Assembly (NCBI GenBank): GCA_030693205.1
Contig: JAUYBG010000010.1
Coordinates: forward strand, 66,059-130,058
DNA length: 64,000 nt
Reading direction: 5' to 3'
Origin: a bacterium
GTDB lineage: Bacteria > Patescibacteriota > Minisyncoccia > JAHIHE01
Shown in pieces: positions 1 through 45,845 of this stretch; position 1 is the first letter of the stretch; the number at the start of each line of letters is the position of its first letter. Both the position numbers and the translations under genes were made by a program. The notes beneath the pieces are model-generated. The model did no database searches, was not told the origin of the DNA, and saw nothing but the letters and a program-made list of their open reading frames with translations.

Positions 1-22
1 TTTTATCGGCAATGGGCCGGTT

Positions 23-463
23 ATGGTCTTTACTTGGAGCGCATTCGCGATCATAGGGATTTTAGGAATGACATATAAGAAATATGAAACTCGATTTGTC
101 ATTGCGAGCGAATCGCCAGCAGGCGGTGAGTGCGGCAATCTCGTGCTTATAAAAAAAATCTTAGGATTGCTTCGTCGCTTCGCTTCTCGCAATGACAGTA
201 AGAGAATCTTGGGACTGGCCGGAGTGGGAATTATTTCTTCGGTTTTTTTCTTTCTCTATACTAATTTCGGCTGGTGGCTGGTTTCCGGAATGTATCCGCA
301 TACTTTGGACGGATTGATCCAGTGCTATATTATGGGATTGCCATTTTTCAAGAATAATTTGATCGGAAATCTGATTTTCGTGCCAATGGCGAGCGGCGCG
401 GCGATTTTAATCGGGAACCTAAAGACGAAGAGTTTTAAATTAAGCATGAAAAAGTTTAGCTAA
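23..463 (+). CDS. Small hydrophobic membrane protein; the reading frame passes through a palindromic repeat copy (98-196)
   Basis: Hydrophobic segments such as AFAIIGILG and GVGIISSVFFFLY. A central block ...VIASESPAGGECGNL...RFASRNDS... is the translation of the repeat element. The start is not certain. Confidence 0.35.
   Translation: MVFTWSAFAIIGILGMTYKKYETRFVIASESPAGGECGNLVLIKKILGLLRRFASRNDSKRILGLAGVGIISSVFFFLYTNFGWWLVSGMYPHTLDGLIQCYIMGLPFFKNNLIGNLIFVPMASGAAILIGNLKTKSFKLSMKKFS
98..196. repeat. Palindromic hairpin repeat, family A (gtcattgcgagcg ... cgctcgcaatgac type), copy 1, lying in-frame inside a CDS
   Basis: The termini gtcattgcgagcg / ctcgcaatgac are inverted. Related copies occur at 9451-9533 and 15438-15530. 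Confidence 0.7.
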
Positions 464-543
464 AAATTGATTTGATTTTCCACTAAAATTTGCTATAATA
501 TTAAGACAGCAATGTCTTTTTTAAAACTTTAATATTAAAAACT

Positions 544-1083
544 ATGGATAAATTCGACATGAGCTATAAGGTTATTACGGATTATAAAAAATTATCGGAA
601 ATAATCAATGCTTATAAAATTCTGGGTAAAAAGATAGTGTGCACGATTGGGTCTTGGGATATGCTGCATATCGGGCATTTACGGTATTTGCATAAGGCTA
701 AAAGCGAAGGGGATATTTTGATCGTCGGCGCGGACAGCGACCGGGCGATCAAGCTTTACAAAAATAATCCTTTGAGGCCGGTGATCCCGGAAGACGAAAG
801 AATGGAAATGTTGAGCTATCAGAATTTTGTGGATTATGTGACGCTTGTTGACGATGTGGACGATAAAGGCGCGTGGCAGATGAAACTTTTGAAAATGGCG
901 CATCCGGATGTATTTGTGGCGGTTAAGGAAAGTTATCCGCCGAATCAGATCAAAGAGATCAAGAAATATGTCAAAACAATGAAAATTCTCAAGCGCCAGG
1001 CGGAAAAAACTTCCACCACGCTTATTATCGAGAGGACATTCAAAAAAAGACTGGAGTATGTTTTATCCAACGCTAAATTATAA
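544..1083 (+). CDS. Cytidylyltransferase-family nucleotidyltransferase, similar to HldE/RfaE domain II and TagD
   Basis: GSWDMLHIGHLRYL matches the (T/H)xGH motif. The block IVGADSDRAIKLYK...RPVIPEDERMEML resembles the ADP-heptose synthase adenylyltransferase domain. Confidence 0.6.
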   Translation: MDKFDMSYKVITDYKKLSEIINAYKILGKKIVCTIGSWDMLHIGHLRYLHKAKSEGDILIVGADSDRAIKLYKNNPLRPVIPEDERMEMLSYQNFVDYVTLVDDVDDKGAWQMKLLKMAHPDVFVAVKESYPPNQIKEIKKYVKTMKILKRQAEKTSTTLIIERTFKKRLEYVLSNAKL

Positions 1084-1091
1084 GATATTTT

Positions 1092-1157
1092 GTCACCCTG
1101 AGCTTGTCGAAGGGTGATTAATTGCGTTTTTCATGGTTCGACAGGCTCACCATGACA
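1092..1157. repeat. Double-hairpin repeat, family B (tcaccctgagcttgtcgaagggtga + tcatggttcgacaggctcaccatgaca)
   Basis: Two adjacent stem-loops with 7-bp stems. A half-copy at 49797-49822 is the reverse complement of the second hairpin. Confidence 0.6.
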
Positions 1158-1174
1158 GACAGTAAAGCCGTATT

Positions 1175-1618
1175 ATGCTTAAAAAAGTTGTTGATCTGAG
1201 GTTCGCGAAAACCAAGGATTATCGGAAAACTCTGGAAACTATCCAGAAAAAAGGCAAGTGTCCGTTTTGTCCGGAAAATTTTATTTATCACAAAAACCCG
1301 ATATTGAAAAAAAACGGCGATTGGCTGATTACCTTGAGCAGCTGGCCGTATAAGAATTCCGAATATCATTTTTTGATCATCAGTTTGCGGCATAAGGAAA
1401 AATTTAGCGCTCTTGAGCTGGCTGATTTTGGGAGCGTAATGAAGTTGGTAGTTTGGGCGGAGAAAAAATTTAAGATCAAGGGAGGGGGACTGGTTTTGCG
1501 TTTTGGCGATACGGCTTATACGGGTTCGACCGTCTGTCATTTGCATTTCCATTTAATCGTGCCAAAGTTAAACAAAAAAACCAAGCGGGCAAATGCGGTT
1601 TGGTTTCCGATAGGGTGA
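1175..1618 (+). CDS. HIT-family nucleotide hydrolase/transferase (histidine triad)
   Basis: HLHFHLIVP is the HxHxHxx motif. An upstream CPFC motif is typical of the GalT/Ap4A-phosphorylase-like HIT branch. Confidence 0.6.
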   Translation: MLKKVVDLRFAKTKDYRKTLETIQKKGKCPFCPENFIYHKNPILKKNGDWLITLSSWPYKNSEYHFLIISLRHKEKFSALELADFGSVMKLVVWAEKKFKIKGGGLVLRFGDTAYTGSTVCHLHFHLIVPKLNKKTKRANAVWFPIG

Positions 1619-1820
1619 AATATTGTGTGTTAAATTTCGGCAGGATTAAATTTTTCTTAAAAGATGTTCGGCTGTGACAATAATTATTATACATTGATTT
1701 AAATTGCCTCACTCGAATTTTGGCGACATGAAACTTTAGATAAATTATTTTGTTAATATTGTCGCCAAAATGCGCTTTTTGCGAAAAATTTAATCCTGCC
1801 GAAACATTATTATTTACTAT

Positions 1821-2690
1821 ATGAAAAAATTTACAAATTCAATTTTAATTATCGGCGAGTTTTCGGTATTTCACAAAGGTTATGCCGATTTTTTGGCTGA
1901 AATGAGTCAGAATAAGCACAGTAAATTTTTTGTCGGGATTTTGGGGGATAATCTGATCAAATATCTGACCGCGCTTGAACCGGATATCAGGAAGGTTTCA
2001 GCGGAAGATGCCGAGCGGATAATAAATTCATTTTTAGGCGCGGAAAAATATTTTACGGTTGAAAAAGACAATTTCGCCGATATTATCAAGGAGATCAGCC
2101 CTGAAAAAATAATCATTTTAAAAGGCGACAAAAGCGAAAATTTCGCGGAAAAATATCTCGGAAATTATAAAGATATTATAGAATATTTTGATATTAGATT
2201 GCGATGGAAAGATTCGCGCGTTCAGGAATTTAAAAAAGAAGTTTCGGATATTCCTCCAAAAGAATTAGCGGAATATCAGGGCTTTATGACCGAAGCTCAA
2301 GCGGAAGCGGAAAAATCCAAATGCTGGTGGCGGCAAGTCGGGGCGGTGGCGGTAAAAGACGGAAAAGTGATATTTAAGGGATTCAACAGGATGATGCCCA
2401 ATGACGATGAATGTTATAAAATCGGCTGTATTCGCGACCCTATCGCTCCAGGAAAAAGCCCGGAGATTTGCAGTGTTACTCATGCCGAGGCAACGATCAT
2501 TTCTTTGGCGGCCAATGAAGGCGCGTCTTTGAAAGGCGCGACATTGTTTGTCACTCACTTTCCTTGTCCGGCTTGCGCGAAATTGGTAGCTTTGTCGGGG
2601 TTTAAAAAACTTGTCTATACCCGCGGTTCATCGGTTTTCGACGGGGAAAGAGTGATGGCCAGCGGGGGAGTTGACATAATTAAGATTTAG
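1821..2690 (+). CDS. dCMP/cytidine deaminase-family zinc deaminase (C-terminal half) fused to a roughly 160-aa N-terminal nucleotidyltransferase-like domain
   Basis: C-terminal half has SVTHAEATII (HAE zinc motif) and HFPCPACAKL (PCxxC). The N-terminal GEFSVFHKGY resembles the G-x-F-x-x-x-H-x-G-H motif. Confidence 0.65.
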   Translation: MKKFTNSILIIGEFSVFHKGYADFLAEMSQNKHSKFFVGILGDNLIKYLTALEPDIRKVSAEDAERIINSFLGAEKYFTVEKDNFADIIKEISPEKIIILKGDKSENFAEKYLGNYKDIIEYFDIRLRWKDSRVQEFKKEVSDIPPKELAEYQGFMTEAQAEAEKSKCWWRQVGAVAVKDGKVIFKGFNRMMPNDDECYKIGCIRDPIAPGKSPEICSVTHAEATIISLAANEGASLKGATLFVTHFPCPACAKLVALSGFKKLVYTRGSSVFDGERVMASGGVDIIKI

Positions 2691-2733
2691 TATTAGTATT
2701 TTGATATAAGAGACCTTAAAAGTCTTTTTAAAA

Positions 2734-3330
2734 TTGAATAAAAATAGAGGAGGAATAGAAACGAAAGAAAAGAAGATTATTAAAAATGGCATACTTGCAG
2801 ATTCATCTATAATATATGGAAAAAAGATGAAATGGTTGCCGCTATTAGCTTATTTGTTTGCCAATATTTGTTTGGTAACAAAGTCTGGAGAAGTCATATT
2901 GGTTTTGACCGAAGAAAGGAAGAGTAAAAATATATACGTTATCCCAGGTGGAGAACTTTTATATTCATTATCGGAAACCTTTAAGACTGCGGTTATAAGA
3001 GAAGCCGGAAAAGAGGAAATGGGCATTAAGCTAAATTCTAAAAAGATAAAAATCTTTGATGCTCAAATAGGGTATCCGATAAAAGGCAGTCCCTATGAAG
3101 AAAAAGGCATAACTTCTGTGATAGTTTCGTATCTGTATTTTATTACAGACAAAGAACTTAAAAAGATCAGAATAAATGCTGTTCCGGAAAAAGGATGTGA
3201 TATCGTAAAAGTTTTAGTGAAACCCGTACCAGACATTTTGCAAGATATTGAAGATGGAAAAATAAATGTATATCCTGCTTTAAAGGAAACATTAGCTAAA
3301 CTGGATTTATTTTTTAGAGAAGGAAATTAA
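2734..3330 (+). CDS. Nudix hydrolase
   Basis: VIPGGELLYSLSETFKTAVIREAGKEEMGI approximates the Nudix box GX5EX7REUXEEXGU. The true start may be downstream, at MKWLPLL. Confidence 0.5.
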   Translation: MNKNRGGIETKEKKIIKNGILADSSIIYGKKMKWLPLLAYLFANICLVTKSGEVILVLTEERKSKNIYVIPGGELLYSLSETFKTAVIREAGKEEMGIKLNSKKIKIFDAQIGYPIKGSPYEEKGITSVIVSYLYFITDKELKKIRINAVPEKGCDIVKVLVKPVPDILQDIEDGKINVYPALKETLAKLDLFFREGN

Positions 3331-3378
3331 CCCTTCTTTTTATTTGAAAAAAAATCTTAAATATGGTAAATTTAAGCA

Positions 3379-3891
3379 ATGAAGAAGAATAACAAAAAAC
3401 TGGAATTTCCGCCGCAAAAAACTTATTTTGTTGCTTCAATGGTATTGATAAACGAAGAAGGACAGCTTTTACTGACCAAAGAAAAAAATAATCGCAATAT
3501 TTGGACTGTTCCGGGCGGGGAAGTTGATTATAAGGCAAAAGAGCAATTTTTGGACGCGGCTATCCGTGAAACGAAAGAGGAGGTTGATGTTTCGGTTGAT
3601 CCTCGCGAAGCGCAATTGATCGATGTCAGGATCTCTTATGCCGAAGGAGATAATCCTTACAAAAAGCATAATATTTTTATTTTGATTGCGACTTGCATAG
3701 CGCATTTTTCCCCAAAGCAAAAAATAACGCTTAAAAGATCTTTTGACGCTTTGGAGCGTAAATATGACGTGAAAGATTTTATTTGGATCGCGCCGGAAGA
3801 GATCTCGAAGAAAAAAATAAAAGTGCATAAAAATTTTATCAAAACGATTCCGATAATCAACCAATGGATCGAAAAATATGGAAAAGGATAA
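3379..3891 (+). CDS. Nudix hydrolase
   Basis: VPGGEVDYKAKEQFLDAAIRETKEEVDV is a Nudix box. Confidence 0.6.
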   Translation: MKKNNKKLEFPPQKTYFVASMVLINEEGQLLLTKEKNNRNIWTVPGGEVDYKAKEQFLDAAIRETKEEVDVSVDPREAQLIDVRISYAEGDNPYKKHNIFILIATCIAHFSPKQKITLKRSFDALERKYDVKDFIWIAPEEISKKKIKVHKNFIKTIPIINQWIEKYGKG

Positions 3892-5353
3892 GCAAAAAAC
3901 AAAATTCGCTTGCGCCGGCGATATCGGCTGGCCGATATATTATTCGGATAGCCTGATCAAGGGTAATCCGGAAAGCGAAATTGGAATTACTACTCTTTGG
4001 ACGCCGGCGAAATTAATCGCGGACAAGATCGACCCAAAGCTTTTTTCCGTGGTCGGTCAGCTCTATTCCAAGGAAGGCATAAATTTTATTTTGCGGAATA
4101 TTCTGGCAAATCCGCGCATTCGCTATATAATTGTTTGCGGCACTGAACTTTCCGGATCCGGCAAAGCGCTGGTGGATTTTTTTGCCAAAGGCGTGGACAA
4201 AGACAATAATATTATCGGCAATGATTTTGCCGCGATCCATAAAGAAATTCCGCTTGAGGCGATCGAAATGGTGAGGAAAAATGTCAAATGCGAGAATCTT
4301 ATTGGCGTCGCCGATGCGGAAAAGATCATCGAAAAGATCAAAAATTATAAGCCGGAAGGAAAACCTTTTTCCGAGCCGCAAACATTTCCTGAACCTAAAA
4401 ATGATCTGGCGGTTTCTTTCCCCGGCGAAGATACCGTGTTTCCTATACGCCATAAATATATCGGCGGAGCGTGGCTTGAAATACTCAAGCATATCCAGCG
4501 CTTCGGTACGATCCGGAATAATTTTTATGGCGGCAGTGTGCGGGAAATTTTTAATATCGCGGCGGTCGTTACGGACGAGGATTCTTTCAATCCGAAAATA
4601 TTTCCTTATATGCAAGTTTGCAAGAAAGAGATCGAGAAATATTGCCAGTATATTTTGAATGGCAATAAAGGGGATGAGGTTTATACTTATGGCGAGCGGC
4701 TTTGGAATTATAAGGGAATTAATCAAGTGGAAGACGTGATCATTCCATATTTAAAAAAATATCCGACTGATCGGGCGGCAGTGGCTATGATGTTTGATCT
4801 GGCGGTTGATCACAAGGCAAGCCGCGCGCCTTGTATGTGTATGGTGCAGGCCGCGACGCTCGGCGATAAATTGAATCTGACCGCGTATTTCCGAAGCCAT
4901 GCGGTGTTTTCCGGTTGGGTGTTGAATGCGTTTGGCTTAAGGCGGTTGCAGAAATATATTGCCGATAAGCTAAATTTAAAAATTGGCACTTTGACCGTAT
5001 TTTCCAATTGCGCGCATATTTACGATAATGAGTGGAGTGCGGCGGAAAAAATAGTCAAAGATCATGGCAATAATTTCGAGGTTATACTGGATCCGCGCGG
5101 ATATTTTATGATCTCGTTGGATAAAAAAGAGATCGTGGCAAAACATTATTCGCCGGATGGAAGATTTTTGGAAGAATTCAGGCAGGACGGCATGATCCCA
5201 AAATCGGCGATGGCGCTGTATGCGAAGCTTGCCGCCGCCAATACTGTTTCCGTAATATCTCACGCTTTTGATCTTGGCGTAGAGCTGGAAAAAGCGGAAT
5301 TCGCGATTAAATTGGGATTAGAATATTCGCAGGATAAAGAATTAAAATTTTAA
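3878..5353 (+). CDS. Two-domain protein: N-terminal MtrA-like domain (tetrahydromethanopterin S-methyltransferase subunit A family) fused to a C-terminal thymidylate synthase (ThyA)-like domain
   Basis: The N-terminal GWPIYYSD...NPESEIGITTLWT...NILANPRIRYIIVCGTELSGSGKAL...NIIGN resembles MtrA. In the C-terminal half, TYGERLWNY, DRAAVAMMFDLA, APCMCMVQ (catalytic Cys in the PCH position), AYFRSHAVFSGWVLNAFGL and NCAHIYDNEW align with ThyA conserved blocks. Confidence 0.6.
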   Translation: MEKDKQKTKFACAGDIGWPIYYSDSLIKGNPESEIGITTLWTPAKLIADKIDPKLFSVVGQLYSKEGINFILRNILANPRIRYIIVCGTELSGSGKALVDFFAKGVDKDNNIIGNDFAAIHKEIPLEAIEMVRKNVKCENLIGVADAEKIIEKIKNYKPEGKPFSEPQTFPEPKNDLAVSFPGEDTVFPIRHKYIGGAWLEILKHIQRFGTIRNNFYGGSVREIFNIAAVVTDEDSFNPKIFPYMQVCKKEIEKYCQYILNGNKGDEVYTYGERLWNYKGINQVEDVIIPYLKKYPTDRAAVAMMFDLAVDHKASRAPCMCMVQAATLGDKLNLTAYFRSHAVFSGWVLNAFGLRRLQKYIADKLNLKIGTLTVFSNCAHIYDNEWSAAEKIVKDHGNNFEVILDPRGYFMISLDKKEIVAKHYSPDGRFLEEFRQDGMIPKSAMALYAKLAAANTVSVISHAFDLGVELEKAEFAIKLGLEYSQDKELKF

Positions 5354-5454
5354 ACAAATCAATTTTATGAGCGCTTTAGGGGTTAGAAGCTTTGACAATT
5401 CTTCCGTTTAACGCTAACATTACTAGTAATATAATAATTTATAAATAATTTTTT

Positions 5455-6036
5455 ATGACTAATTATAAGACCCAGAAGCCAACTGATATTTTAAAAAAAG
5501 ACCACAAGATCATCAAGGATATTATTAAAGTGCTGGAGGCATGCGCCGGTTCGCTTGAGAAAGGCGGAAAATGCGATTTAGACATATTGAACGGCAGTAT
5601 GAATTTGATCAAGAATTTTAATCATAAATATCATCGGCGGACGGAGGAGAGCGTTTTGTTTAAAATCGCTGAGAAAAAAGAAGCGCCTTGGAGCGGAGGA
5701 GATATCAGTTCGATAATCAGAGAGCACGAGGAAGGTGCGGAACAAGTGCGGCGTGTCGCGGATCTTCTCAGGGAATCGGTCGCGGCGGGCATTTTCAGTA
5801 AAAAATCGAAAAAGGCCGTAGTAAAAAATTTATATGCCTATAGCTCGCTTTTGGGCAGCCATCTTATGCAGGAAGAAAAAACCCTATATCCGGTGATCGA
5901 GAGCTTGCTGACCAATCAAGAGAAAAAAAATATTTTACAAAGCTTTGAAAGACTGGCGCAAGAAATGAAGGAAATTGGAGACAAAGAACGATACACAAAT
6001 TCGATCAAAGAGTATAAAAAAAGATTAGCCATTTAA
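5455..6036 (+). CDS. Hemerythrin-like (HHE cation-binding) domain protein
   Basis: LKKDHKIIKD, NHKYHRRTEE and IIREHEEGAE are H/E-rich helices typical of hemerythrin-like domains. Confidence 0.45.
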   Translation: MTNYKTQKPTDILKKDHKIIKDIIKVLEACAGSLEKGGKCDLDILNGSMNLIKNFNHKYHRRTEESVLFKIAEKKEAPWSGGDISSIIREHEEGAEQVRRVADLLRESVAAGIFSKKSKKAVVKNLYAYSSLLGSHLMQEEKTLYPVIESLLTNQEKKNILQSFERLAQEMKEIGDKERYTNSIKEYKKRLAI

Positions 6037-6045
6037 TATTTATTT

Positions 6046-7602
6046 ATGGTTTATAAACCTACTATCGGTTTGGAAATTCATGTTGAACTAAAAACAAACT
6101 CAAAAATGTTTTGCGGTTGCGCCAATAACGCGCTGGAAAAAAGGCCGAATTTTAATATTTGTCCTGTTTGCACCGGCCAGCCGGGAACTTTGCCCTTGGC
6201 AAATAAAAAAGCGATAGAGCTGGTGGTCAGGGCGGCTTTGGCTTTAAATTGTAATATAAATAAATTTTCAAAATTCGACCGAAAAAATTATTTTTATCCG
6301 GATCTGCCGAAAGGTTATCAGATCTCGCAATATGACAAGCCGTTGAGCAAAGAGGGATATCTTGATATTAATATCACAGATTATAATGGTGATATTAATA
6401 AATCCCAAATCCCAAATCCCAAATCCCAAATAAATTCTAAATTACAAACTGCAAAAGTTAAACGGGTGCGAATTACTAGAATACATCTGGAAGAAGATAC
6501 GGGCAAATTATTGCATCCCGATAATGCCGATTATAGCTTGATCGATTATAATCGGGCCGGCGCTCCATTGATGGAATTGGTGACTGAGCCCGACATTGCT
6601 TCGTCCGGCGAAGCGAAGAAATTTTGCCAGGATCTTCAGCTGATCTTTCGTTATTTGGATATTTCCGACGCTGATATGGAAAAAGGGCAAATGCGCTGCG
6701 AGGTAAATATTTCTTTATCAGACAGCGATAAATTGGGAACAAAAGCGGAAATTAAAAATCTCAATTCTTTTAAAGCGGTGGAAAAATCCATTGAGTATGA
6801 GATTGTTCGCCAGAGAAAAGCGCTTACAAAAGGCGAAAAAATTGTTCAAGAAACTCGCGGTTGGGATGAAAACAAAGGCGTAACTTTTTCCCAGCGTGCC
6901 AAAGAAGAAGCTCATGATTATCGGTATTTTCCCGAACCCGATTTGCCGCCGATCGATTTTGAAAAAAACACAGTAGCCGATATTGAAGCGATAAGAAATC
7001 AGCTGCCGGAATTGCCGGAAATAAAAAGAAAAAGATTTTTTGAAGAATATAAATTGCCGGCCAGCGATATTGAAGTTTTGGTTTCAAATAAAAAATTCGC
7101 GGAATATTTCGAGGAAGCCGCTTCCGAATTGGATTCTTGGATCGAAGATAAAAATCTTCCAATAAAAGGCAAAGAGCATCTCCGAATGATCAAAATGGTC
7201 GTTAATTATTTGATTGGCGACATACAATATTTATTGGCGAATTCTAAAACGGAAATAGGTTCTATCAAGATCACGCCGGAAAATTTTGCGGAATTTGTCA
7301 CTCTTGTTTTTGAAGGAAAAATTTCTTCAGCGGCGGCCAAGACGGTTTTGGCGGAAATGTTTGCCAATGGTTCGGATCCGTCGAATATTATTGAAGCAAA
7401 GGAGTTGGCGCAGGAAAGCGGGGAAGATTCTCTGGGCGCGGCGGCGGATGAAGCAATAAAAAATAACCCCGGTCCGGCGGGGGATTATAAGGCAGGCAAA
7501 ACTCAGGCTTTGCAGTTTTTGGTGGGGCAGGTAATGAAGATCAGTAAAGGTAAGGCGAATCCCAAAATTGCAATGGAGTTGCTGAAGAAAAAATTGGGTT
7601 AA
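6046..7602 (+). CDS. gatB: Asp-tRNA(Asn)/Glu-tRNA(Gln) amidotransferase subunit B
   Basis: The N-terminus IGLEIHVELKTNSKMFCGC...CPVCTGQPGTLP is the GatB signature. A C-terminal YqeY-like tail is present. Confidence 0.9.
   Translation: MVYKPTIGLEIHVELKTNSKMFCGCANNALEKRPNFNICPVCTGQPGTLPLANKKAIELVVRAALALNCNINKFSKFDRKNYFYPDLPKGYQISQYDKPLSKEGYLDINITDYNGDINKSQIPNPKSQINSKLQTAKVKRVRITRIHLEEDTGKLLHPDNADYSLIDYNRAGAPLMELVTEPDIASSGEAKKFCQDLQLIFRYLDISDADMEKGQMRCEVNISLSDSDKLGTKAEIKNLNSFKAVEKSIEYEIVRQRKALTKGEKIVQETRGWDENKGVTFSQRAKEEAHDYRYFPEPDLPPIDFEKNTVADIEAIRNQLPELPEIKRKRFFEEYKLPASDIEVLVSNKKFAEYFEEAASELDSWIEDKNLPIKGKEHLRMIKMVVNYLIGDIQYLLANSKTEIGSIKITPENFAEFVTLVFEGKISSAAAKTVLAEMFANGSDPSNIIEAKELAQESGEDSLGAAADEAIKNNPGPAGDYKAGKTQALQFLVGQVMKISKGKANPKIAMELLKKKLG
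6401..6431. repeat. (AAATCCC)4 heptanucleotide microsatellite in-frame inside gatB
   Basis: aaatcccaaatcccaaatcccaaatcccaaat encodes KSQIPNPKSQI. Confidence 0.8.
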
Positions 7603-10588: not shown

Positions 10589-12094
10589 TTAGTATAGATC
10601 TTTGGAGTCAGTGCCAGTTCCGGATATTGGACATTTGTCTACTTTTCTCCAATTAGCTGGCACATCGCAGGGTGTGGGAAATACTTTACAGATTCCTTCC
10701 GGACTGATTGCCGGTGTGATCACTTGAATACAGACTGCTGGTTTAGGAGTAATGCTTACAGTAGGTGGAATTTCCGGTATACTTATGTCCGGTGGGATTT
10801 TTGGTATGCCTGTAATAGGCGGAGTTTCACAAGTTCCTTTCCGAATTATTTCCATTCCGGCCGCTTTGGCAAAACACTCATTAGAATAAGTTTTACCGTT
10901 TTTACCGCAAACCGGATTCCATATCTCAATACAAGCGGGGCCAACATTCAAAACAGGAGGGGTATTTGGGGGAGTAACGCCTGTATCGGGAGTAATGATT
11001 CTATTGGGTGGAACCACCACATCGCCCGTGACTATACATATGGGTTGCGAAGGACAGCCTTTTATGTCCGGGCCAAAAACCACTCTTCCGTTTTTGCAAA
11101 AATCAGAGGCAACGCCCCAAGCCGCACAGCCGATTCGCCGCCCTTCCTCGTTTATTTTTTTTAAAATATCCGCTTTTCCCGCCTCCAGTTTTTCTTGCAG
11201 CCGGGGAGTCTCAACTGTCGCGGTTCCCGCTTTTATTCTCGCTTTCAAATTTTCCAATATTTCCAGTTGTGTTTTTTTGACGCCGGAAATTGTTCCGATA
11301 TAGCCTTTAAATTTTTCCTGATCTTCCGGGCTCATTTTTTCCAGATCCCTCTGCAGTCTTTTCAGAGAATTTTCTTCGGCTTTTTGGATTGCTCCTCTTG
11401 CCTGTTCCGGTAATTTTTCTCCCAAATTTTTTAAAACTTCCAAATTTTTGAATTCTTTAAACTGGCTGCCTGCCTGTTTATCCAGGGCGCTATCAAGCTT
11501 TTCGGTTATTTTTTCCGGCCTGTCTTCCAATTTTTGCATTACGTTATTAAATCTTTCCAGCTGCGCGTCTTTTGCTTCTTTTATTTTTGCGAGCGCTTCC
11601 GATGGAACCTGGGTTTCCAATTTTTGAAGAAGTTTTTGGTGCAGGGCTTGCTGGCCGATGAATTTATTAAGGAAAGTTTCCACTTGAGGATTTTCTTTGG
11701 CTTTTTGATTTATTGCGTTGGCTGCTGTTTTCAGCTGTTCGGCTTCTTTTTGGTAATTTTCCGTTGCCTTTTTAATCGCTTCTTGGTTTTTATTTTGTTC
11801 GATCGTTTTTTTCAGTTCCAGTAATTTTTCATTGGCAAATTTCTCTTTTAGCTCAGTTTTGGCGATAGAGCTAAAAGTGAAAAAACTCTGGATTCCTCTT
11901 TGCCAGTTTTTTAGAAAATAAAATGAGCTATCCGGCAGAATTACTGGTTCGCTGATCCCCAGATCGCTTGCTTGTATATTTTCATCGAGATTCACGGCGG
12001 CTGCCGTTTCTGGCGCTGTTTCCTGGGCTAAGGCCGTCAATCCAAAAATAAAAATCATCGCTAAGCTTAAACCGAAGATTTTTAAACTTTTCAT
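10589..12094 (-). CDS. Secreted coiled-coil protein with a C-terminal Kazal-type protease-inhibitor domain
   Basis: Signal peptide MKSLKIFGLSLAMIFIFGLTALA. A long E/K/Q-rich helical region. Kazal signature C-IEIWN-PVCGKNGKTYSNEC-FAKAAGMEIIRKGTC. Confidence 0.6.
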   Translation of the reverse strand: MKSLKIFGLSLAMIFIFGLTALAQETAPETAAAVNLDENIQASDLGISEPVILPDSSFYFLKNWQRGIQSFFTFSSIAKTELKEKFANEKLLELKKTIEQNKNQEAIKKATENYQKEAEQLKTAANAINQKAKENPQVETFLNKFIGQQALHQKLLQKLETQVPSEALAKIKEAKDAQLERFNNVMQKLEDRPEKITEKLDSALDKQAGSQFKEFKNLEVLKNLGEKLPEQARGAIQKAEENSLKRLQRDLEKMSPEDQEKFKGYIGTISGVKKTQLEILENLKARIKAGTATVETPRLQEKLEAGKADILKKINEEGRRIGCAAWGVASDFCKNGRVVFGPDIKGCPSQPICIVTGDVVVPPNRIITPDTGVTPPNTPPVLNVGPACIEIWNPVCGKNGKTYSNECFAKAAGMEIIRKGTCETPPITGIPKIPPDISIPEIPPTVSITPKPAVCIQVITPAISPEGICKVFPTPCDVPANWRKVDKCPISGTGTDSKDLY

Positions 12095-12205
12095 ATTTTT
12101 TTATTGATTAATTATTTATAATTTATATTTTTATTGCTTTAATTTTAGTCTTTTTTAGAAACGCTGTCAATTTTTTCAATGCTAATTTTCATCTTGACCG
12201 TTCAT

Positions 12206-13651
12206 TTAGCTCAAAAAATCAATTATTCCCATTTCAAATTTATCCAGTTCCGGCGTCATTGGCCAGCCATACGAAAGAGGGGTAAGAATGGCGAAGCTTA
12301 TGGCGATTAAAATCAACAACGCGGCGAAAATCTCTTTGTCTTTTTGGTAAATTTTTTCCAGATAAATGCTTAAAAGCAGAATGGCAAACGTGGCCGAGAG
12401 CAGGTAATGATAAAGAAAAGCCACGCGTTTGACCCCGATGAAAGGCAGGATATTGGCAAAATACGCCAAAACCAGCAAATACATAAACGGTGTAATTTTT
12501 TGCCGTTCTTTTTTACTGACTATTAAAATCAAAGTCAGAGCGATCGCTCCAAACGCGAGCCCCCAGAGGACAGGATTTCCGAGAAAATAAATTTTTCCGA
12601 TCTTTTGTCCATTGTCGGGAGTCGGCGCTTGATACCAATAATATATCGGTTTTTTATCAGAAGGCCATTCGTTCCATACACTGCTAAAAGGATGAGTGGC
12701 GGTCAGTCCGGCGCTGGCGCCGTACATTGTGGCATTTAACTCAATGAATTTTTCCCAAAAATTAAGCGGATCGGGAGTATCTTCTTTTCCGTTTTTGAGT
12801 TCGGACTGGAAAGGCGCGCTCATAAACGCGTCGCCCTGTCCGGACTTGGTCAGAAGATCGAAATGGATATAAAACGGGATCAAATAAATCAGGAATCCCG
12901 TCACGAAAATGATCACAATGCCGGCGATAGCTTCTTTGATTTTGATCATTATAGAAACGGCATGATTTTCCGGGCTTAGCCAATCGGACATTTTTCTGCT
13001 AATAATTTTAATCAATAAAATTGTTACAATAACGCCGATTGTCGCGAGTCCTGTCCATTTTATTGAAACAGTTAATCCGAAACTAACGCCGGTTAGCGCC
13101 AGAAAAGCAAACCATTTCTTGCTGAAGATTTTTTCTTTTTGATAAAGCAGGAAAAAGCAGAAAGTCAGGATCTCAAAAAACACGAGGAAGATATCAATAG
13201 CGATTATTTTTGATTGAACCAGGAAGGCGTTATCGAGTAGGATCAGCACTCCGGCGATCAGGGCAATCTGTCTTGAGCGGGTGGCAAGGTACGCGAACCA
13301 CGAAAAAAGCAATACGAATAAACTTCCGAACAAAGCCGGCAGAAATCTTAAGGTGAAAAATAATTGCGAGTTTGCCGCTTCGCCGATTTTGTCAAAGTTA
13401 AACACAAGATCGAAATTCATTAATTTTGCCCAGCCGGCGATGATAAGCTTTCCCAGAGGCGGGTGGATGTCAAAATAATATTGGTGGTTGAAATAAGCCG
13501 CGGCAAATTTACCAAAGTATATTTCGTCAAAAATTGTCTGATTGGGGTAGGCGAGGAAGGCGAAATGAACAATGAAAGCCGATATTGCCAGAATAACGAA
13601 TAGATAGTTTGTTCTGAGAAAATCTTTTAGCCAAATTATTGACAAATGCAT
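12206..13651 (-). CDS. GT39 (PMT/ArnT-like) membrane glycosyltransferase, resembling protein O-mannosyltransferases
   Basis: FDEIYFGKFAAAY...YFDIHPPLGKLIIAGW matches the conserved PMT loop-1 motif. Multiple TM helices. Confidence 0.6.
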   Translation of the reverse strand: MHLSIIWLKDFLRTNYLFVILAISAFIVHFAFLAYPNQTIFDEIYFGKFAAAYFNHQYYFDIHPPLGKLIIAGWAKLMNFDLVFNFDKIGEAANSQLFFTLRFLPALFGSLFVLLFSWFAYLATRSRQIALIAGVLILLDNAFLVQSKIIAIDIFLVFFEILTFCFFLLYQKEKIFSKKWFAFLALTGVSFGLTVSIKWTGLATIGVIVTILLIKIISRKMSDWLSPENHAVSIMIKIKEAIAGIVIIFVTGFLIYLIPFYIHFDLLTKSGQGDAFMSAPFQSELKNGKEDTPDPLNFWEKFIELNATMYGASAGLTATHPFSSVWNEWPSDKKPIYYWYQAPTPDNGQKIGKIYFLGNPVLWGLAFGAIALTLILIVSKKERQKITPFMYLLVLAYFANILPFIGVKRVAFLYHYLLSATFAILLLSIYLEKIYQKDKEIFAALLILIAISFAILTPLSYGWPMTPELDKFEMGIIDFLS

Positions 13652-41877: not shown

Positions 41878-42034
41878 ATTTTTAAATTCTCCAAAGCGCG
41901 TATTTTATTGTATAATTATATGGTATTTGACGAGTAGAGTCAATTTTAATTAATGAACTTTATAACTCGATAACTGCCGAGCTCTTGTTATTTTTCCATT
42001 TTATCGCTAGAATTATGTTATTGGTTATTTGCGG

Positions 42035-42106
42035 GGCCCTATCGTCTAGTGGCTAGGACAGGTGGTTCTCATCCACCAAACAGGGGTCCGATTCCCCTTA
42101 GGGCTA
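42035..42106 (+). tRNA. tRNA-Glu (anticodon CUC)
   Basis: Cloverleaf folded by hand: acceptor GGCCCTA/TAGGGCT, D-arm GTCT-AGTGGCTAG-GAC, anticodon arm GGTGG-TTCTCAT-CCACC, T-arm AGGGG-TCCGATT-CCCCT. It aligns with E. coli tRNA-Glu. Confidence 0.75.
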
Positions 42107-42198
42107 CTAAATAAAATTAATAATTTAAAACCGAGAACGCTAAACGATAAATTCAAAATTTAACGTCGCAGACCCAGCGTTCAAAGTTTATACTATTT

Positions 42199-42942
42199 AT
42201 GCAAGAGAAAAAACAGCAAGCGCCGCAGCAAGCGCAACAAGAAGTAAAAGTTACGGAAGATTTTAACAAAAACATCAAAGACCTGGGGTTGGTGATCCTG
42301 ATCGTAGCCGTCGCCGGCTGGGCGCTTTTTAAGTATGACTCAAGAAATGAAAATAATAATTCAAATAATCAAACTAAAGAACAAACTATGGAAAAACCAG
42401 CGATAAAGCAAGTTGAAAAACCGACCAAAGAGGAAGCCGCGAAATATGACGCGATTGCGGACAAAAAAATCGTGGTTATCGAAACCAATAAAGGCGTAAT
42501 AAAAGCGAAGCTTTATGCGAAAGACGCGCCTTATACGGTGGCGAGTTTTATGAAATTGATCGAAAACGGCTTATATGATGGCTTGATCTTTCATCGGGTA
42601 ATTGCCGGTTTTATGATCCAGGGAGGCGATCCTTACGGAAATGGCACTGGCGGACCCGGCTATAAATTTGACGATGAACTGAATGCAAAAACTGTTTCTT
42701 ACAAGGCAGGCTATAAAAAAGGCGTTCTGGCTATGGCAAATTCCGGTCCGAATACCAACGGCAGTCAGTTTTTTATTATGTTAGAGGACTATCAACTACC
42801 GAAGAACTATACGATTTTTGGAAAAGTTACCGTCGGCCAAGAAGTGGTGGACGCGATTGGCAAAGTGGCGACAGATAAGAGTAATGATAAACCTCTCGAA
42901 GACGTGAAAATAACAAAAGTTTATTTAGAGGATGTAAAATAG
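42199..42942 (+). CDS. Cyclophilin-type peptidyl-prolyl cis-trans isomerase with an N-terminal membrane anchor/linker
   Basis: FHRVIAGFMIQGGDP, GGPGYKF, LAMANSGPNTNGSQFFI. Confidence 0.85.
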   Translation: MQEKKQQAPQQAQQEVKVTEDFNKNIKDLGLVILIVAVAGWALFKYDSRNENNNSNNQTKEQTMEKPAIKQVEKPTKEEAAKYDAIADKKIVVIETNKGVIKAKLYAKDAPYTVASFMKLIENGLYDGLIFHRVIAGFMIQGGDPYGNGTGGPGYKFDDELNAKTVSYKAGYKKGVLAMANSGPNTNGSQFFIMLEDYQLPKNYTIFGKVTVGQEVVDAIGKVATDKSNDKPLEDVKITKVYLEDVK

Positions 42943-42966
42943 TCTCAATTCATAAAATATTTTAAA

Positions 42967-42998
42967 ACGGCTCTCGCGAAGAGAACCGTTTTTTTGTA
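42967..42998 (+). terminator. Rho-independent terminator
   Basis: aacggctctcgcgaagagaaccgttttttt: a stem, then a T-run. Confidence 0.5.
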
Positions 42999-43088
42999 AA
43001 AAAAAGAGGCAGAGCAGCTATATCGCTGGTGCCTTATTGGGCAAGTTTTATTTTTTTACTACATGGTATCCGGTAACTGACATTCTAC

Positions 43089-43381
43089 TGCCGCCAGCGG
43101 GATGGGTACCGACAACGGTAAGCAGATTGTCGTCTTGAGGGGTTACCTTTTCCACTATCAGGTTATAAATGTCTCCTTTTTTAGGCGTTTTAATTAATAT
43201 ATTTTGGCCTACTTCTGGCATTTACAACACCACGATCATTTGGTTGGTTCCGCCGTTGAGATTTACTCCTATAGTTGTTTCTGTGGATTCTCCTTTTTCC
43301 GTTTTTAAAATAACGGCATCGTTGATTTGTTTGCCACGTTTTGCGTTTGCTTGTTGCACAAAATCTCCTTTATTTGCCATA
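43089..43381 (-). pseudogene. Small conserved-looking ORF (about 110 aa) interrupted by a single in-frame TAA
   Basis: Minus strand: MANKGDFVQQ...NQMIVVL-TAA-MPEVGQNILIK...GYHVVKK, in one continuous frame. The function is unknown. Confidence 0.2.
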
Positions 43382-43439
43382 TTTTTTCCTCCAATGTTCT
43401 TTTAAAGCTATTTTTGGCTTATATATTTATAGCACAAAA

Positions 43440-44560
43440 AAGTTATTTTGTCAATAAATTGTATAAGTCCACCCTTTTTTGCACTCCTCGTTAATTTTTA
43501 AATTTCTTGGCAAGGATAGGAGATATTGCACCGGCGATAATTTGTTTTGAAAAGCACAATGCGGTCTTTCGGTATTATACCATAAAAGATAATCAATAAC
43601 TTTTCGGTTGAAATTGTCAGGATTTTCCAACTCTCCTAGATGGTAATCAATGAATTCATCTTGAATCGTGCGGTTGAATCTTTCAATATGCGCGTTCATT
43701 TTAGGAGTTCTGGGGTAGGTATGATAATGAATCAAATGCAAGCGATTTAATTCTTCGTTAAAATGCTTCTTGAATTCAGAGCCGTTATCGGTTAAAACGA
43801 AAGTAAAAGGAAACGGGAAAGCTTTCTGGCAGTAATCAAAAAAATCTTTAGCGGCTTTTGAGGCGTGGCTGGTGGTGGCCCAGGCAAAAGCAAATCTGGT
43901 GTGAATGTCTTCAAAGGTAATTATGTATCTTCTGATTCCGTATACGAATTTCTCTATGGAATCCAAAGCAACCAAATGTCCCGGATATTCTGCTTTAAAA
44001 TCCTTTGGCTTACGCAATACTTTCTTTCTTTTAAGAGGTTTGATCTTGCCAAAATGAGTGACTTTTTGAGGAAATATTCTTAAGCCCCCTAAGTCCATAA
44101 TCAGCCTGCCGATAGTGGAAGATTCGGGGCATCGTTGATTATGCTCTTGGCAGAACTTTTTAAGCAAAGGATGAATTTTATCTTTACCCAGATTGGGATG
44201 CTTGAATCTTAATCGTTTGATTTCAGAGATCACTTCTTCCGGCCACAATCTTTTTCTTCTGATTATTGGGGCTTTGGATTTCTCGTTCAGAGCTTCGGGC
44301 TTTCTGCCGCCGCTGATAAACTTGGCTTTCCAGCCATAGAGAGTTCTCTCCTTGGTCTTAAAGGCATCAAGCGCGGCTTCCAGCCCGTGCTTCTCCCAGA
44401 AAGCCAATACTCGAGCTTTATGCAATGCTTTGGCAGTGATCATATATTGGTATTTTAAGGCGTAATTATACAAGGTGATAAAACCTTTAATACCAGTATA
44501 TTTAGAATGGATTGAATTGTAAAACTCCATTTAGGGTTTCATGGAGTGCAAGATGTATGT
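43440..44560 (-). mobile_element. IS element encoding a DDE transposase (rve integrase core; IS481-like)
   Basis: ORF 43451-44530 (-) carries an rve-type D,D,E core (...VALDSIE..., ...VLTDNGSEF..., ...NAHIERFNRTIQDEF). A 9-bp inverted motif ttgcactcc lies at 43479-43487, and its reverse complement ggagtgcaa at 44541-44549. Confidence 0.6.
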
Positions 44561-44576
44561 GAACTTATGCAATGGA

Positions 44577-45023
44577 CTACTGCGGCAAAACACAGCCGGT
44601 TTTTTCTGCCAATTGGCTCATCGGCACCTCTCCTTCCTTTACCGTACCATCGGAAAATTTCCAAGTCGGATATCCTTTTATGCCGGCATCGTTGCAAACT
44701 TGCGCGAAAGTCCCAGCTTTGCCGTCTACGGTACATTCTTGATAATTCACATATTGAAAAGATGAACCAAACGCCGCTTTTTGATTTTTACAATATATGC
44801 ATGTAAAAGCCCCATACATTTTTGCGCCTTTTTCGGTCAAACATTTGGCAAAATTATCATATTTTGACGGAGCAGACGAAGCTACCGTTGGATTAGGGTC
44901 TACATTTCCAAAACTGGCTTTATTCAAATAAACCGCCCCGACAATTATCAAAAAAAATCCCAGCACTCCGATTATTACGTTTTTATTCATAGTCGTAATG
45001 GATAAATTTAAAGTTATTAACAC
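44577..45023 (-). CDS. Membrane-anchored thioredoxin-fold protein (CxxC)
   Basis: N-terminal TM. CIYC redox motif. GIKGYPTWKF matches the cis-Pro loop region of the Trx/DsbA fold. Confidence 0.45.
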   Translation of the reverse strand: MLITLNLSITTMNKNVIIGVLGFFLIIVGAVYLNKASFGNVDPNPTVASSAPSKYDNFAKCLTEKGAKMYGAFTCIYCKNQKAAFGSSFQYVNYQECTVDGKAGTFAQVCNDAGIKGYPTWKFSDGTVKEGEVPMSQLAEKTGCVLPQ

Positions 45024-45368
45024 TTGCTACTTTGTATTATAGCTCATAAAAGAAAAAAACAAAAGCTTTTATGTAAAATTATTTTCATTTTATTATTATT
45101 ATTTTTATCTTATTTAAAAATCAAAACTGCCGAATCAAATATATAACGCTCAATGGCTTTGTTTTGTGACACTGTATCAATAACTTTAAATAAAAAAAAT
45201 AAAATCTACCGATGTTAAAATCCCTTGCTAAAGCTCTATTCCGTCAATGGTGGATTAAAAGTGGATAACTTCTCTTTATTAACGCGTAAACATTCCATTT
45301 TTAAAACCGACAGCTTGTCGTTTTTTGTTTTATCTAAGCCGTTATTTTTAATTATTGTTGTCAAAACA

Positions 45369-45397
45369 TTGACACTCTTTTTGGGTATGCTATACTT
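45369..45397 (+). promoter_or_regulatory. Strong sigma70-like promoter (TTGACA-16-TATACT) in a gene-free region
   Basis: ttgacactctttttgggtatgctatact. Confidence 0.45.
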
Positions 45398-45403
45398 AGT
45401 TTA

Positions 45404-45640
45404 AGATTATATAAGATAAGTTTGTTTAGTGGGTTTTTGGTTGGTGTATCCTTGATCTTTATAGAGGTCAGAGACACACCAACCAAACAAAACAAAAAAT
45501 CAAAACAAAAAAATCGCCCTTCTGAAAGAATGGCACCAAAAAAACAAACAAACCCCAAAACAAACACAAAATAAAAAAATAAAATTATACTTATATAATC
45601 TCTCTCAAAGCATCGATTCACAGGAATCGATTTTTTGATG
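45404..45640 (+). ncRNA. Putative small RNA (about 240 nt) with a long-range stem and a CA-rich tract, ending at a rho-independent terminator
   Basis: The promoter is at 45369-45397. Stem ttggttggtgt / acaccaaccaa. A (CAAAA)-like low-complexity run. Terminator atcgattcacaggaatcgat + TTTTTT at 45612-45640. No convincing ORF. Confidence 0.3.
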
Positions 45641-45742
45641 TCTTTTTTATTTTTAAATTTATAATCATAAACCGATATTTTAAATTTTAAAAGTGCATGT
45701 AAGCGCTTTAATAAGCTCAAAACAACATTTATCGACAGATAT

Positions 45743-45835: not shown

Positions 45836-45845
45836 AGAGCATTAA

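Follow-up and report, generated by a model that had tools for sequence, protein, structure and literature searches.

Few pathways have been studied, or targeted by drugs, as intensively as thymidylate synthesis. Several further families concern us here: nucleotidyltransferases (NTs) of the HIGH type form NMP-P-X bonds (NMP, nucleoside monophosphate), as in NAD, FAD, dephospho-CoA, and ADP-heptose, HIT and Nudix proteins hydrolyze such bonds, and the ATP-cone is an allosteric domain known from ribonucleotide reductases and NrdR. In this study, we analyzed a 64,000-nucleotide (nt) stretch of bacterial DNA (GenBank assembly GCA_030693205.1, contig JAUYBG010000010.1, positions 66,059 to 130,058 of the forward strand), hereafter called the window, in which a gene cluster at positions 544 to 6036 encodes two NT-like domains, a HIT protein, a dCMP deaminase, two Nudix proteins, and a three-domain protein of 491 amino acids (aa) that we named ThyF. 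With a probability of about 0.6, we read the cluster as a housekeeping thymidylate-synthesis operon of a lineage of Patescibacteria (the candidate phyla radiation, CPR), with an accessory enzyme unit around the deaminase.

Two sets of published residue assignments guided the comparison. In the ThyA family, Asn at the position equivalent to N177 goes with dUMP specificity, whereas Asp in its place goes with activity on dCMP or CMP; an acidic residue at the position equivalent to Leu143 is found in hydroxymethylases and 5-hydroxy-dCMP synthases; and the bulky Leu located three residues before the catalytic Cys of Escherichia coli ThyA is thought to keep water out (PMC13326640). In MtrA, His84 is the lower axial cobalt ligand and Glu54 is its hydrogen-bond partner (PMC4915002). 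We found no description in the literature of an MtrA–ThyA–DUF4346 fusion or of an NT/HIT/Nudix/deaminase module. The pathway proposed here is a textbook one, whereas the three-domain corrinoid-free synthase across CPR bacteria and DPANN archaea and the accessory unit fused to the deaminase have not been described previously in the literature that we found.

RESULTS

ThyF is a predicted thymidylate synthase with two additional domains

ThyF is encoded at positions 3878 to 5353 (+ strand) and is composed of an MtrA-like Rossmann domain (residues ~17 to 160), a methanogen-type ThyA domain (~190 to 400), and a PterinBD-DUF4346 domain (~404 to 486), with Pfam scores of 64.2, 61.4 (threshold, 24.3), and 62.5 bits, respectively. 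A preliminary description of the locus had recognized a fusion of MtrA-like and ThyA-like domains, and both are indeed present, but it had missed the third domain at residues 404 to 486. Bacterial ThyA models gave ~40 bits on ThyF versus cutoffs of >100, and the classical C-terminal segment of ThyA, which closes the folate site, is replaced by DUF4346.

Seventeen ThyF sequences, sharing 41 to 100% identity with the window protein, were aligned, and the correspondence to ThyA residues was read from the motif context and from hidden Markov model (HMM) alignments to ThyA proteins of the PDB. Residues P318-C319, R339-S340, N350, H380, Y382, Y271-G272, and E223 are invariant in the alignment. C319 is equivalent to C146 of the E. 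coli enzyme and N350 occupies the N177 position, and R339, S340, H380, Y382, Y271, and E223 correspond to the phosphate- and pyrimidine-binding residues R166, S167, H207, Y209, Y94, and E58.

In a profile alignment of the MtrA-like domain to 5laa, His84 of the "QGH" motif falls in a 2-residue deletion and Glu54 aligns to Ser64. Since both residues are lost, the domain has the MtrA fold but is not an MtrA-type corrinoid protein. The DUF4346 region matches the C-terminal part of the dihydropteroate-synthase-like family TIGR00284. Given this match and the Pfam name PterinBD, the extra domains most plausibly bind or position a pterin, and they would probably do so in place of the C terminus that closes the folate site in classical ThyA.

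Gene neighborhoods link ThyF to dCMP deaminase, NT, HIT, and thymidylate kinase genes

One genome per GTDB species was scanned, which gave 211 confirmed ThyF-encoding stretches, and 80 loci were retrieved together with as much as 10 kb of DNA to either side; two more, L081 and L082, were examined in addition (loci are given L numbers and proteins P numbers). The window proteins were compared by blastp with all open reading frames (ORFs) of the loci, these ORFs were clustered all against all without the use of labels, and gene maps were drawn. More than 300 ThyF homologues share the same three-domain architecture, and their labels are Patescibacteria, Parcubacteria, Pacebacteria, and similar, and also Aenigmarchaeota. 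The closest relatives are labeled Patescibacteria or Paceibacterota, and an identical protein (P0001) is encoded on a 195,904-bp contig of a metagenome-assembled genome at NCBI, in agreement with the earlier assignment of the window to a cellular, CPR-like genome.

Neighbors lying within 5 kb of ThyF were counted in 50 loci, those in which ThyF is flanked by 3 kb or more in each direction. A dCMP deaminase was present in 37 loci (on the same strand as ThyF in 35), NT1, the product of the first gene of the window cluster, in 25 (all on the same strand), a HIT protein in 21 (all on the same strand), and thymidylate kinase (Tmk) in 21 (20 on the same strand). Less frequent were dUTPase (Dut; 12 loci, 9 on the same strand) and, always on the strand of ThyF, Nud2-like (8 loci), Nud1-like (5 loci), GlyA (5 loci), FolD (5 loci), and DeoC (4 loci) proteins. 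Pfam confirmed the identity of Tmk, dUTPase, and related neighbors. The conserved core consists of four genes, those of NT1, a Hint-type HIT protein, a protein fusing an NT-like domain to a dCMP deaminase (NT-b–dCD), and ThyF. They occur together and co-directionally down to ~35% ThyF identity, in shuffled order: the order of the window, NT1-HIT-NT.dCD-Nud1-Nud2-ThyF, is also found in L002, L003, L006, L007, and L033, and others are NT1-dCD-HIT-ThyF (L012 to L019, L031) and HIT-ThyF-NT.NT-dCD (L061).

Tmk and Dut genes were found close to ThyF in both bacteria and archaea. Tmk and/or Dut come next after ThyF in L002, L006, and L007, where the window and L001 have a hemerythrin gene, and in the Woesearchaeota loci L030 and L036, Tmk is immediately 5′ of ThyF with Dut close by. 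GlyA and FolD directly follow ThyF in L004, L009, L042, and L055 and lie ~2.8 kb downstream in L067, which argues for an ordinary supply of folate one-carbon units. The context of Tmk, Dut, GlyA, and FolD in relatives fits the route proposed in the preliminary description, from dCMP via dUMP to dTMP and fed by nucleotide-splitting enzymes.

At the Kerfeldbacteria-type loci L039 (8790 to 9323) and L047 (9375 to 9929), we observed a P-loop kinase of ~180 aa encoded between a standalone deaminase and ThyF, with NT1 and HIT absent. It has matches to AAA_17/AAA_18 and weak matches to dNMP kinases and CoaE-like proteins, and it may be another way to feed or drain the same pathway.

The accessory enzymes are fused to one another in many combinations

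In relatives, the separate genes of the window appear as parts of single polypeptides. NT+HIT fusions are present in L042 (347 aa) and L072 (337 aa), and tandem NT+NT proteins in L057 and L061 (both with a standalone deaminase) and in P0370; P0367 joins NT+NT+HIT. An APH-type kinase is fused to an NT in L072 (426 aa) and to NT+NT+HIT in L055 (one 745-aa ORF) and in P0404. A HIT+Nudix fusion was found in L050. The deaminase itself is joined to an NT in P0416 and to NT1 plus NT-b in P0492; an ATP-cone precedes NT+Nudix in P0442 and NT+Nudix+dCMP deaminase in P0473. The P0473 gene lies between a DUF6580 gene and the ThyF gene and overlaps the latter by 17 nt (L081, L082). This setting matches that of the window, with four or five of the window genes merged into one polypeptide.

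The fusions and the context of P0473 argue that the NT or NTs, HIT and/or Nudix, and the deaminase act together just upstream of ThyF, and the ATP-cone of some lineages points to control by the ATP/dATP pool. Shuffled co-directional loci and natural fusions, rather than generic housekeeping matches lacking synteny, are thus what the survey returned, and the earlier reading of the genes as a module for nucleotide metabolism stands, the module being conserved.

Sequence features of NT-b–dCD, HIT, and the Nudix proteins

NT-b–dCD (1821 to 2690, + strand; 289 aa) consists of a degenerate cytidylyltransferase-fold domain, NT-b (residues ~1 to 135), with a weak CTP_transf_like signal in Pfam, and a dCMP deaminase domain (residues ~150 to 289). 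The deaminase fold is present, and its zinc motifs HAE and PCxxC are invariant (H221, E223, C249, C252). NT-b has the motif GxFxxxHxGY, that is, HxGY in place of HxGH, together with an invariant ExDxR and no recognizable ISTT; because of the HxGY and the missing ISTT, it may be catalytically inactive and may serve as a nucleotide-binding or dimerization domain. The NT-b–dCD architecture occurs in 54 loci by the all-against-all clustering. Systems with NT and HIT nearly always possess two NT domains, either NT1 plus NT-b or two NT1-like domains plus a standalone deaminase, with L067 as the exception.

The HIT protein (1175 to 1618, + strand; 147 aa; Pfam HIT, 30.8 bits) has the motif HLHFHLI. 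In the relatives compared, H122 and H124 never vary, and L013, L022, and L023 carry Gln in place of the third His of HxHxH. A profile built from 15 homologues matched bacterial Hint-type proteins best in the PDB (5uvm, 2e-12), and the search with the single sequence was marginal. We therefore assign it to the Hint branch, as a predicted hydrolase or transferase acting on NMP-X compounds.

Nud1 (2734 to 3330, + strand; 198 aa) is a divergent Nudix-like protein that starts with TTG, an in-frame ATG being located 31 codons downstream. It scored 19 bits with Pfam NUDIX, below the gathering score of 21.1, and its Nudix box, as read from the translation, deviates by an extra residue (REagkEE). Nud2 (3379 to 3891, + strand; 170 aa) scored 52.1 bits; its box reads REtkEE, with correct spacing of the upstream Glu and the Gly shifted by two residues. 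Of the two, Nud2 is by far the better match to the Nudix portion of P0473 (43% identity over 61 aa; E = 4e-9) and thus the likely equivalent of this portion of the ATP-cone–NT–Nudix–deaminase fusion. Homologues of Nud1 stand at the same position in L001 to L003, L006, L007, L029, and L033, and the protein is conserved in the clade of the window only. The pair of Nudix genes listed in the preliminary description is thus a feature of this clade and is sporadic elsewhere.

NT1 belongs to a tight orthogroup of HIGH-motif nucleotidyltransferases

NT1 (544 to 1083, + strand; 179 aa) is a HIGH-motif NT resembling domain II of HldE, with a Pfam CTP_transf_like score of 62.7 bits. The motifs HxGH (H42-x-G44-H45) and (S/T)STT (S157) are conserved across its orthogroup, which has in addition a distinctive conserved loop, DDV..G.WQ, and shows unusually high conservation, with 60 to 70% identity across lineages. 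When a set of 1.84 billion representative proteins was searched exhaustively with NT1 by phmmer, the orthogroup was tight, comprising 33 clusters at E ≤ 1e-30.

Three close relatives of NT1, P0391, P0419, and P0421 (480 to 540 aa; ~41 to 50% identity), carry an N-terminal extension of ~300 residues. The extension of P0391 matches no Pfam or NCBIfam family, and P0417 and P0451 likewise show the NT domain alone.

A more distant relative, P0402 (313 aa), is fused to a TIR effector domain of the CAP12/Pycsar type, indicating that an NT of this family has been recruited to an antiphage signaling context. Searches of the window proteins against PADLOC and PHROGs gave domain-level matches only; those to PADLOC were weak and comprised dCTPase on the deaminase core (56.9 bits), a ThsC-like HIT (E = 0.003), and PDC-S07 for Nud2. 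One could accordingly picture the deaminase, Nudix, HIT, and NT proteins as an antiphage defense acting by nucleotide depletion or signaling. We regard this as extremely improbable, since the matches lie far below family thresholds (the antiphage dCTP deaminase model NF041025 gave 55.8 bits versus a cutoff of 400), the module sits between ribosomal-protein/NusG-like ORFs (assigned by sequence only) and gatB and is linked to Tmk, Dut, GlyA, and FolD, and its order and sequence are conserved like those of a core gene, as the identity of NT1 across lineages illustrates.

NT1 and its relatives also have weak matches to Pfam FAD_syn, which brings up a role in cofactor metabolism. NT1 would then be a RibL-like FMN adenylyltransferase, the HIT and Nudix proteins would be FAD pyrophosphatases, and ThyF would work with the assistance of flavin and regenerate tetrahydrofolate, so that no dihydrofolate reductase would be needed. 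E. coli FolA had no blastp or tblastn match in the ORFs of the 80 loci or in the window, a result that says little about whole genomes, and yet GlyA and FolD adjoin ThyF in five loci; moreover, an MtrA-like domain deprived of corrinoid-ligating residues must bind something else, if anything. These points would suit the flavin scheme. On the other side, the NTs are fused to deaminase, HIT, and Nudix domains and never to ThyF, no FAD synthetase model comes as near to NT1 as HldE domain II, ThyF resembles 9iqc only at the level of the general thymidylate synthase (TS) fold (19% identity) and has Asn, not Asp, at the specificity position, and the failure to see folA within 10 kb has little bearing on the whole genome. 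We therefore consider this scheme highly improbable.

Operon layout and other features of the window

The seven co-directional genes listed in the preliminary description were all recovered as + strand ORFs, and its domain names were confirmed by Pfam or NCBIfam, Nud1 being below threshold. The spacers, in gene order, are 91, 202, 43, and 48 nt, a 14-nt overlap between Nud2 and ThyF, 101 nt, and 9 nt to gatB; the earlier description of the spacers as minimal is therefore only approximately correct. A promoter-like site precedes the first gene at 472 to 499 (+ strand; TTGATT-16-TATAAT, extended TG, 10 of 12 positions matching), an assignment that reflects a consensus match only.

The 202-nt spacer between the HIT and NT-b–dCD genes contains a perfect 21-bp inverted repeat at 1636 to 1803 (arms, 1636 to 1656 and 1783 to 1803), within which a 12-bp inverted repeat is nested (~1719 to 1730 and 1761 to 1772). 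The predicted RNA fold of the region is −58.4 kcal/mol (z = −7.2). Neither the rest of the window nor, by exact matching, any of the 80 related loci contains another copy of the arm; judged by gene offsets, close relatives seem to have a much shorter spacer at this place. The repeat is specific to the lineage of the window; it may act as an attenuator or bind a protein as a palindrome, or it may be a small inserted element. An Rfam scan of positions 1 to 6200 at E ≤ 1 revealed no riboswitch and no family at the gathering score, with three subthreshold small RNA matches, and a scan for terminators gave a count no higher than the shuffled expectation.

Upstream of NT1 lies a gene for a multi-pass DUF6580 membrane protein (23 to 463, + strand; Pfam DUF6580, 82.5 bits), of which profile positions 86 to 155 alone are matched; this copy is probably truncated at its N terminus by the start of the window, and it has an insertion of ~33 residues. 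Homologues are encoded upstream of NT1 in L002, L003, L005 to L007, L011, L027, and L029 and immediately 5′ of the fused ATP-cone–NT–Nudix–deaminase gene in L081/L082 (L081, 240 to 818). For DUF6580, there was no NCBIfam family, no literature was found, and a sequence search of the PDB gave chance-level matches only. Transport of a precursor or cofactor is a possible function of the protein.

Downstream, the hemerythrin-like protein (5455 to 6036, + strand; 193 aa; Pfam Hemerythrin, 65.6 bits) had been counted as a module member, a claim that the neighborhoods do not bear out: it adjoins ThyF in 1 of the 50 loci (on the same strand), its homologue was found in L001 alone among the 80 loci, and its gene is preceded by promoter-like sites of its own at 5392 to 5435. 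It is probably an insertion particular to the lineage, placed between ThyF and gatB and outside the module. The next gene, gatB (6046 to 7602, + strand), is a frequent downstream neighbor, present in 22 of the 50 loci, and is functionally unrelated.

A tblastn search of the 64-kb window for tmk, glyA, folD, and deoC gave no match, which is not informative for the whole genome. On a larger scale, cumulative GC skew climbs steadily up to ~44 kb of the window and then declines (region, ~42000 to 46000), and the long ORFs are mostly on the + strand before ~44 kb and mostly on the − strand after it. The skew peak and the strand switch are consistent with a replication terminus or origin within the window.

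DISCUSSION

A proposed route into dTMP

In the proposed pathway, the deaminase domain of NT-b–dCD would convert dCMP into dUMP, and ThyF would methylate dUMP to dTMP with a methylene-pterin, most likely methylene-tetrahydrofolate, using Cys319 as the nucleophile and Asn350 to specify dUMP. In most relatives, Tmk (dTMP to dTDP) and often Dut or GlyA plus FolD share the operon; in this genome, they would lie beyond the 64-kb window. That these two steps form the core of the operon and fulfill a housekeeping role is a prediction in which we have considerable confidence.

Much lower confidence attaches to the rest of the scheme, in which NT1, NT-b, HIT, and Nudix would form one functional, and probably one physical, unit around the deaminase. 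Since NTs make and HIT and Nudix proteins break NMP-P-X pyrophosphate bonds, we propose a cycle of transfer followed by hydrolysis that would deliver or gate the nucleotide of the deaminase, an idea that is tentative and may well prove wrong. Two variants can be envisaged. In the first, dCTP and X-P would yield dCDP-X and then dCMP and X-P, with a net conversion of dCTP to dCMP, and the need for a source of dCMP speaks for it. In the second, ATP and dCMP would yield A(5′)pp(5′)dC, which would be deaminated while NT-b holds the adenylyl handle and then be split into AMP and dUMP; the use of ATP by the nearest relatives of NT1 speaks for this one. The ATP-cone present in some lineages would add allosteric control by the ATP/dATP pool.

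A more far-reaching version is that the NT, HIT, Nudix, and deaminase proteins constitute a new multienzyme route into dUMP and that ThyF represents a new mechanistic class of the ThyA fold, whose corrinoid-free MtrA-like domain and DUF4346 would handle the pterin, perhaps sparing a separate dihydrofolate reductase. We consider it rather unlikely that both parts hold.

Observations that weigh against the proposal

A number of observations count against the housekeeping operon with its accessory unit, the most general being that the functions of all enzymes discussed here are assigned by homology or context. Regarding ThyF, the methanogen-type model TIGR03283 is covered from positions 3 to 199 of 201, but the score of 144 bits falls below the cutoff of 174.55. 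The Asp169 position is occupied by Ala342 in the window protein and by D, A, E, or S across the family; one Arg (R299) of the R126/R127 pair is retained; and the residue three before the catalytic Cys is a polar one (R, S, H, or K), which matches neither the Leu of ThyA nor the acidic residue of the hydroxymethylases. Because of the deviations at the Asp169, R126/R127, and Leu143 positions, neither cofactor handling nor the choice between methylation and hydroxymethylation can be read from the sequence. A further TS-like gene lies near ThyF in 2 of the 80 loci, described below.

The absence of the bulky Leu, the score below the TS equivalog cutoff, and transferase domains that lack an explanation could suggest a modified-base pathway instead, in which ThyF would hydroxymethylate or otherwise derivatize dUMP and the NTs would act on the product by activating or decorating it, in the manner of phage thymidine hypermodification. 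Such a modified-dUMP or nucleotide-sugar product had been raised as a possibility in the preliminary description. It now appears very unlikely. The catalytic Cys is kept and Asn350 is invariant, whereas homologues acting on dCMP have Asp, and the Leu143 position lacks the acidic residue typical of hydroxymethylases and 5-hydroxy-dCMP (5hoC) synthases. The recurrent partners in bacteria and archaea alike are Tmk, dUTPase, GlyA, and FolD, and the family has a broad distribution among cellular CPR and DPANN genomes, as the 211 stretches of the species-representative collection attest. Coverage of either fusion protein by any phage record stayed at or below 57%, tblastn of a phage collection gave single-domain matches, and no hypermodification-type transferase or kinase recurs in the neighborhoods. 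The NTs, moreover, are fused to deaminase, HIT, and Nudix domains, whose action precedes that of ThyF, and never to ThyF or to a DNA-modifying enzyme.

The two loci with a further TS-like ORF deserve separate mention. In the Woesearchaeota locus L030, a standalone, minimal archaeal-type ThyA-like ORF (5383 to 6027, − strand) is located ~4 kb from ThyF; it shares 37% identity with the TS domain of ThyF and ends just past the HIY motif, and thus at least some genomes have both forms. It has His three residues before the catalytic Cys. Since this position is polar there as well, the Leu143 rule may not transfer to the archaeal-type subfamily, and we rejected the position as a decisive sign of hydroxymethylation, which again argues against a modified-base pathway. 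In the Patescibacteria locus L045, a second, very divergent TS-like ORF (11835 to 12785, − strand; 317 residues from stop to stop) adjoins ThyF on the opposite strand, with a standalone dCMP deaminase alongside. It contains "DDPPC" and hence an acidic residue three before the catalytic Cys, the pattern associated with hydroxymethylases, and for this reason it could be a genuine modified-pyrimidine module; alternatively, it could be a prophage remnant.

Other adverse observations concern the accessory unit. The order dCD-ThyF-Tmk occurs without NT1 or HIT in the Kerfeldbacteria-type loci L039, L047, and L077, in most DPANN loci, and in Chloroflexota, and the unit is therefore dispensable for the pathway. 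An HMM test for orthology between NT-b and the second NT domain of the tandem fusions gave no support for it, both domains scoring far better with the NT1 model. The gatB gene, though functionally unrelated, is as syntenic as NT1 (22 of the 50 loci, always on the strand of ThyF), so conserved order alone is weak proof of a functional link, and it is the fusions that bear that weight.

The relatives of NT1 point in another direction. Its best NCBIfam match is rfaE_dom_II (heptose-1-phosphate adenylyltransferase; 87.6 bits, below the cutoff of 181.5), and the nearest proteins beyond its orthogroup are a true HldE (PfkB+NT; P0460, 44% identity) and NT+GmhA fusions, a more distant one being fused to CDP-OH_P_transf and GT2. 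Because these nearest outside relatives are ADP-heptose enzymes, which use ATP and not CTP, ATP is a likelier donor than CTP; the label "cytidylyltransferase" is unjustified, and the cytidylyl logic that had been attached to NT1 is weakened. In L055 and L072, a starch-synthase-like glycosyltransferase gene lies immediately 5′ of the kinase/NT/HIT fusion genes. Together with the ADP-heptose relatives, this leaves room for a sugar-nucleotide role of NT1. A family of glycosyltransferase-like ORFs, recognized from sequence alone, is also found near ThyF on the opposite strand in 10 loci. It could follow that NT1, HIT, and Nudix are ordinary envelope enzymes for sugar- or alcohol-nucleotides (ADP-heptose-like or CDP-alcohol) that share the operon by inheritance, as gatB does. 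We judge this unlikely, given that several independent architectures join an NT to dCMP deaminase (NT-b–dCD in 54 loci; P0416, P0492, and P0473) and that P0473 carries an ATP-cone in addition and is encoded immediately 5′ of ThyF. NT1 also stays far under the HldE and TagD equivalog cutoffs, no heptose kinase or isomerase recurred in the clustering of ThyF-neighborhood ORFs, and no PfkB or SIS partner is among the recurrent neighbor families of ThyF loci.

Implications

A large share of microbial diversity belongs to CPR bacteria and DPANN archaea, whose minimal genomes render the genes they retain informative. If there is a new route into dUMP and a new ThyA class, it would be the main thymidylate route for a large share of CPR, with ThyF in the same role in DPANN archaea. 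The repeated NT/HIT/Nudix/deaminase fusions, some with an ATP-cone, point to missing biochemistry upstream of dUMP. ThyF opens a way into the long-standing question of the cofactor of the archaeal/methanogen-type thymidylate synthase, and it bears on cofactor recycling in organisms that have no obvious dihydrofolate reductase. The PGAP labels "adenylyltransferase/cytidyltransferase family protein," "deaminase," and "thymidylate synthase" mask the system.

Comparison with known systems

Phage hypermodification clusters, such as those for T4 hydroxymethylase, for the 5hoC/arabinosyl bases of RB69 and DLP3, and for modified thymidine, likewise combine a TS-family gene with adjoining deaminase and pyrophosphatase genes. 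Here, in contrast, DNA glycosyltransferases, a phage-type dNMP kinase, and a 5-hydroxymethyluracil DNA kinase are absent, and the setting is that of a cellular core genome. The dCMP deaminases of T4, cyanophage S-TIM5, and Streptococcus mutans (ComEB/DCTD) are the counterparts of NT-b–dCD, which differs from them by its additional N-terminal degenerate NT (HxGY); relatives here are fused to an active-looking NT, Nudix, and ATP-cone.

NT1 shares the HIGH-type fold, HxGH, and (S/T)STT with HldE domain II/HldC and with CCT, ECT, and TagD, and its segment K..K....RP..P...R is presumably also present in RfaE-II, as judged by eye against RfaE-II and RibL sequences. The arrangement with two NTs recalls the tandem cytidylyltransferase domains of ECT. 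NT1 differs from HldE/HldC in scoring well under their cutoffs, in the loop DDV..G.WQ, and in its partners, which are HIT, Nudix, deaminase, and ATP-cone. The bifunctional NadM–Nudix protein (nicotinamide mononucleotide [NMN] adenylyltransferase/ADP-ribose pyrophosphatase) similarly couples a HIGH-type adenylyltransferase with a Nudix domain splitting ADP-X, and Nud2 weakly matches its Nudix half (PRK05379; E = 7e-6). However, NT1 matches no NMN adenylyltransferase model (NadR, 16.9 bits; NadM half, none), and the context is that of pyrimidine deoxynucleotides, not NAD.

MtrA, the corrinoid subunit of the methyl-tetrahydromethanopterin:coenzyme M methyltransferase (5laa, 5l8x), shares its Rossmann-type fold with the first domain of ThyF, which differs in being without His84, Glu54, and the membrane anchor and in being fused to a thymidylate synthase. 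With the methanogen/archaeal-type ThyA (TIGR03283, MJ0757-like), ThyF shares the TS fold, the Cys, the Arg-Ser, the Asn, and the His/Tyr, and its TS domain, like the minimal archaeal ThyA, is without the classical C-terminal segment. Unlike the methanogen-type enzyme, ThyF holds this domain between an MtrA-like domain and DUF4346 in one chain of 480 to 490 aa, and it is found not in methanogens but in CPR bacteria and DPANN archaea.

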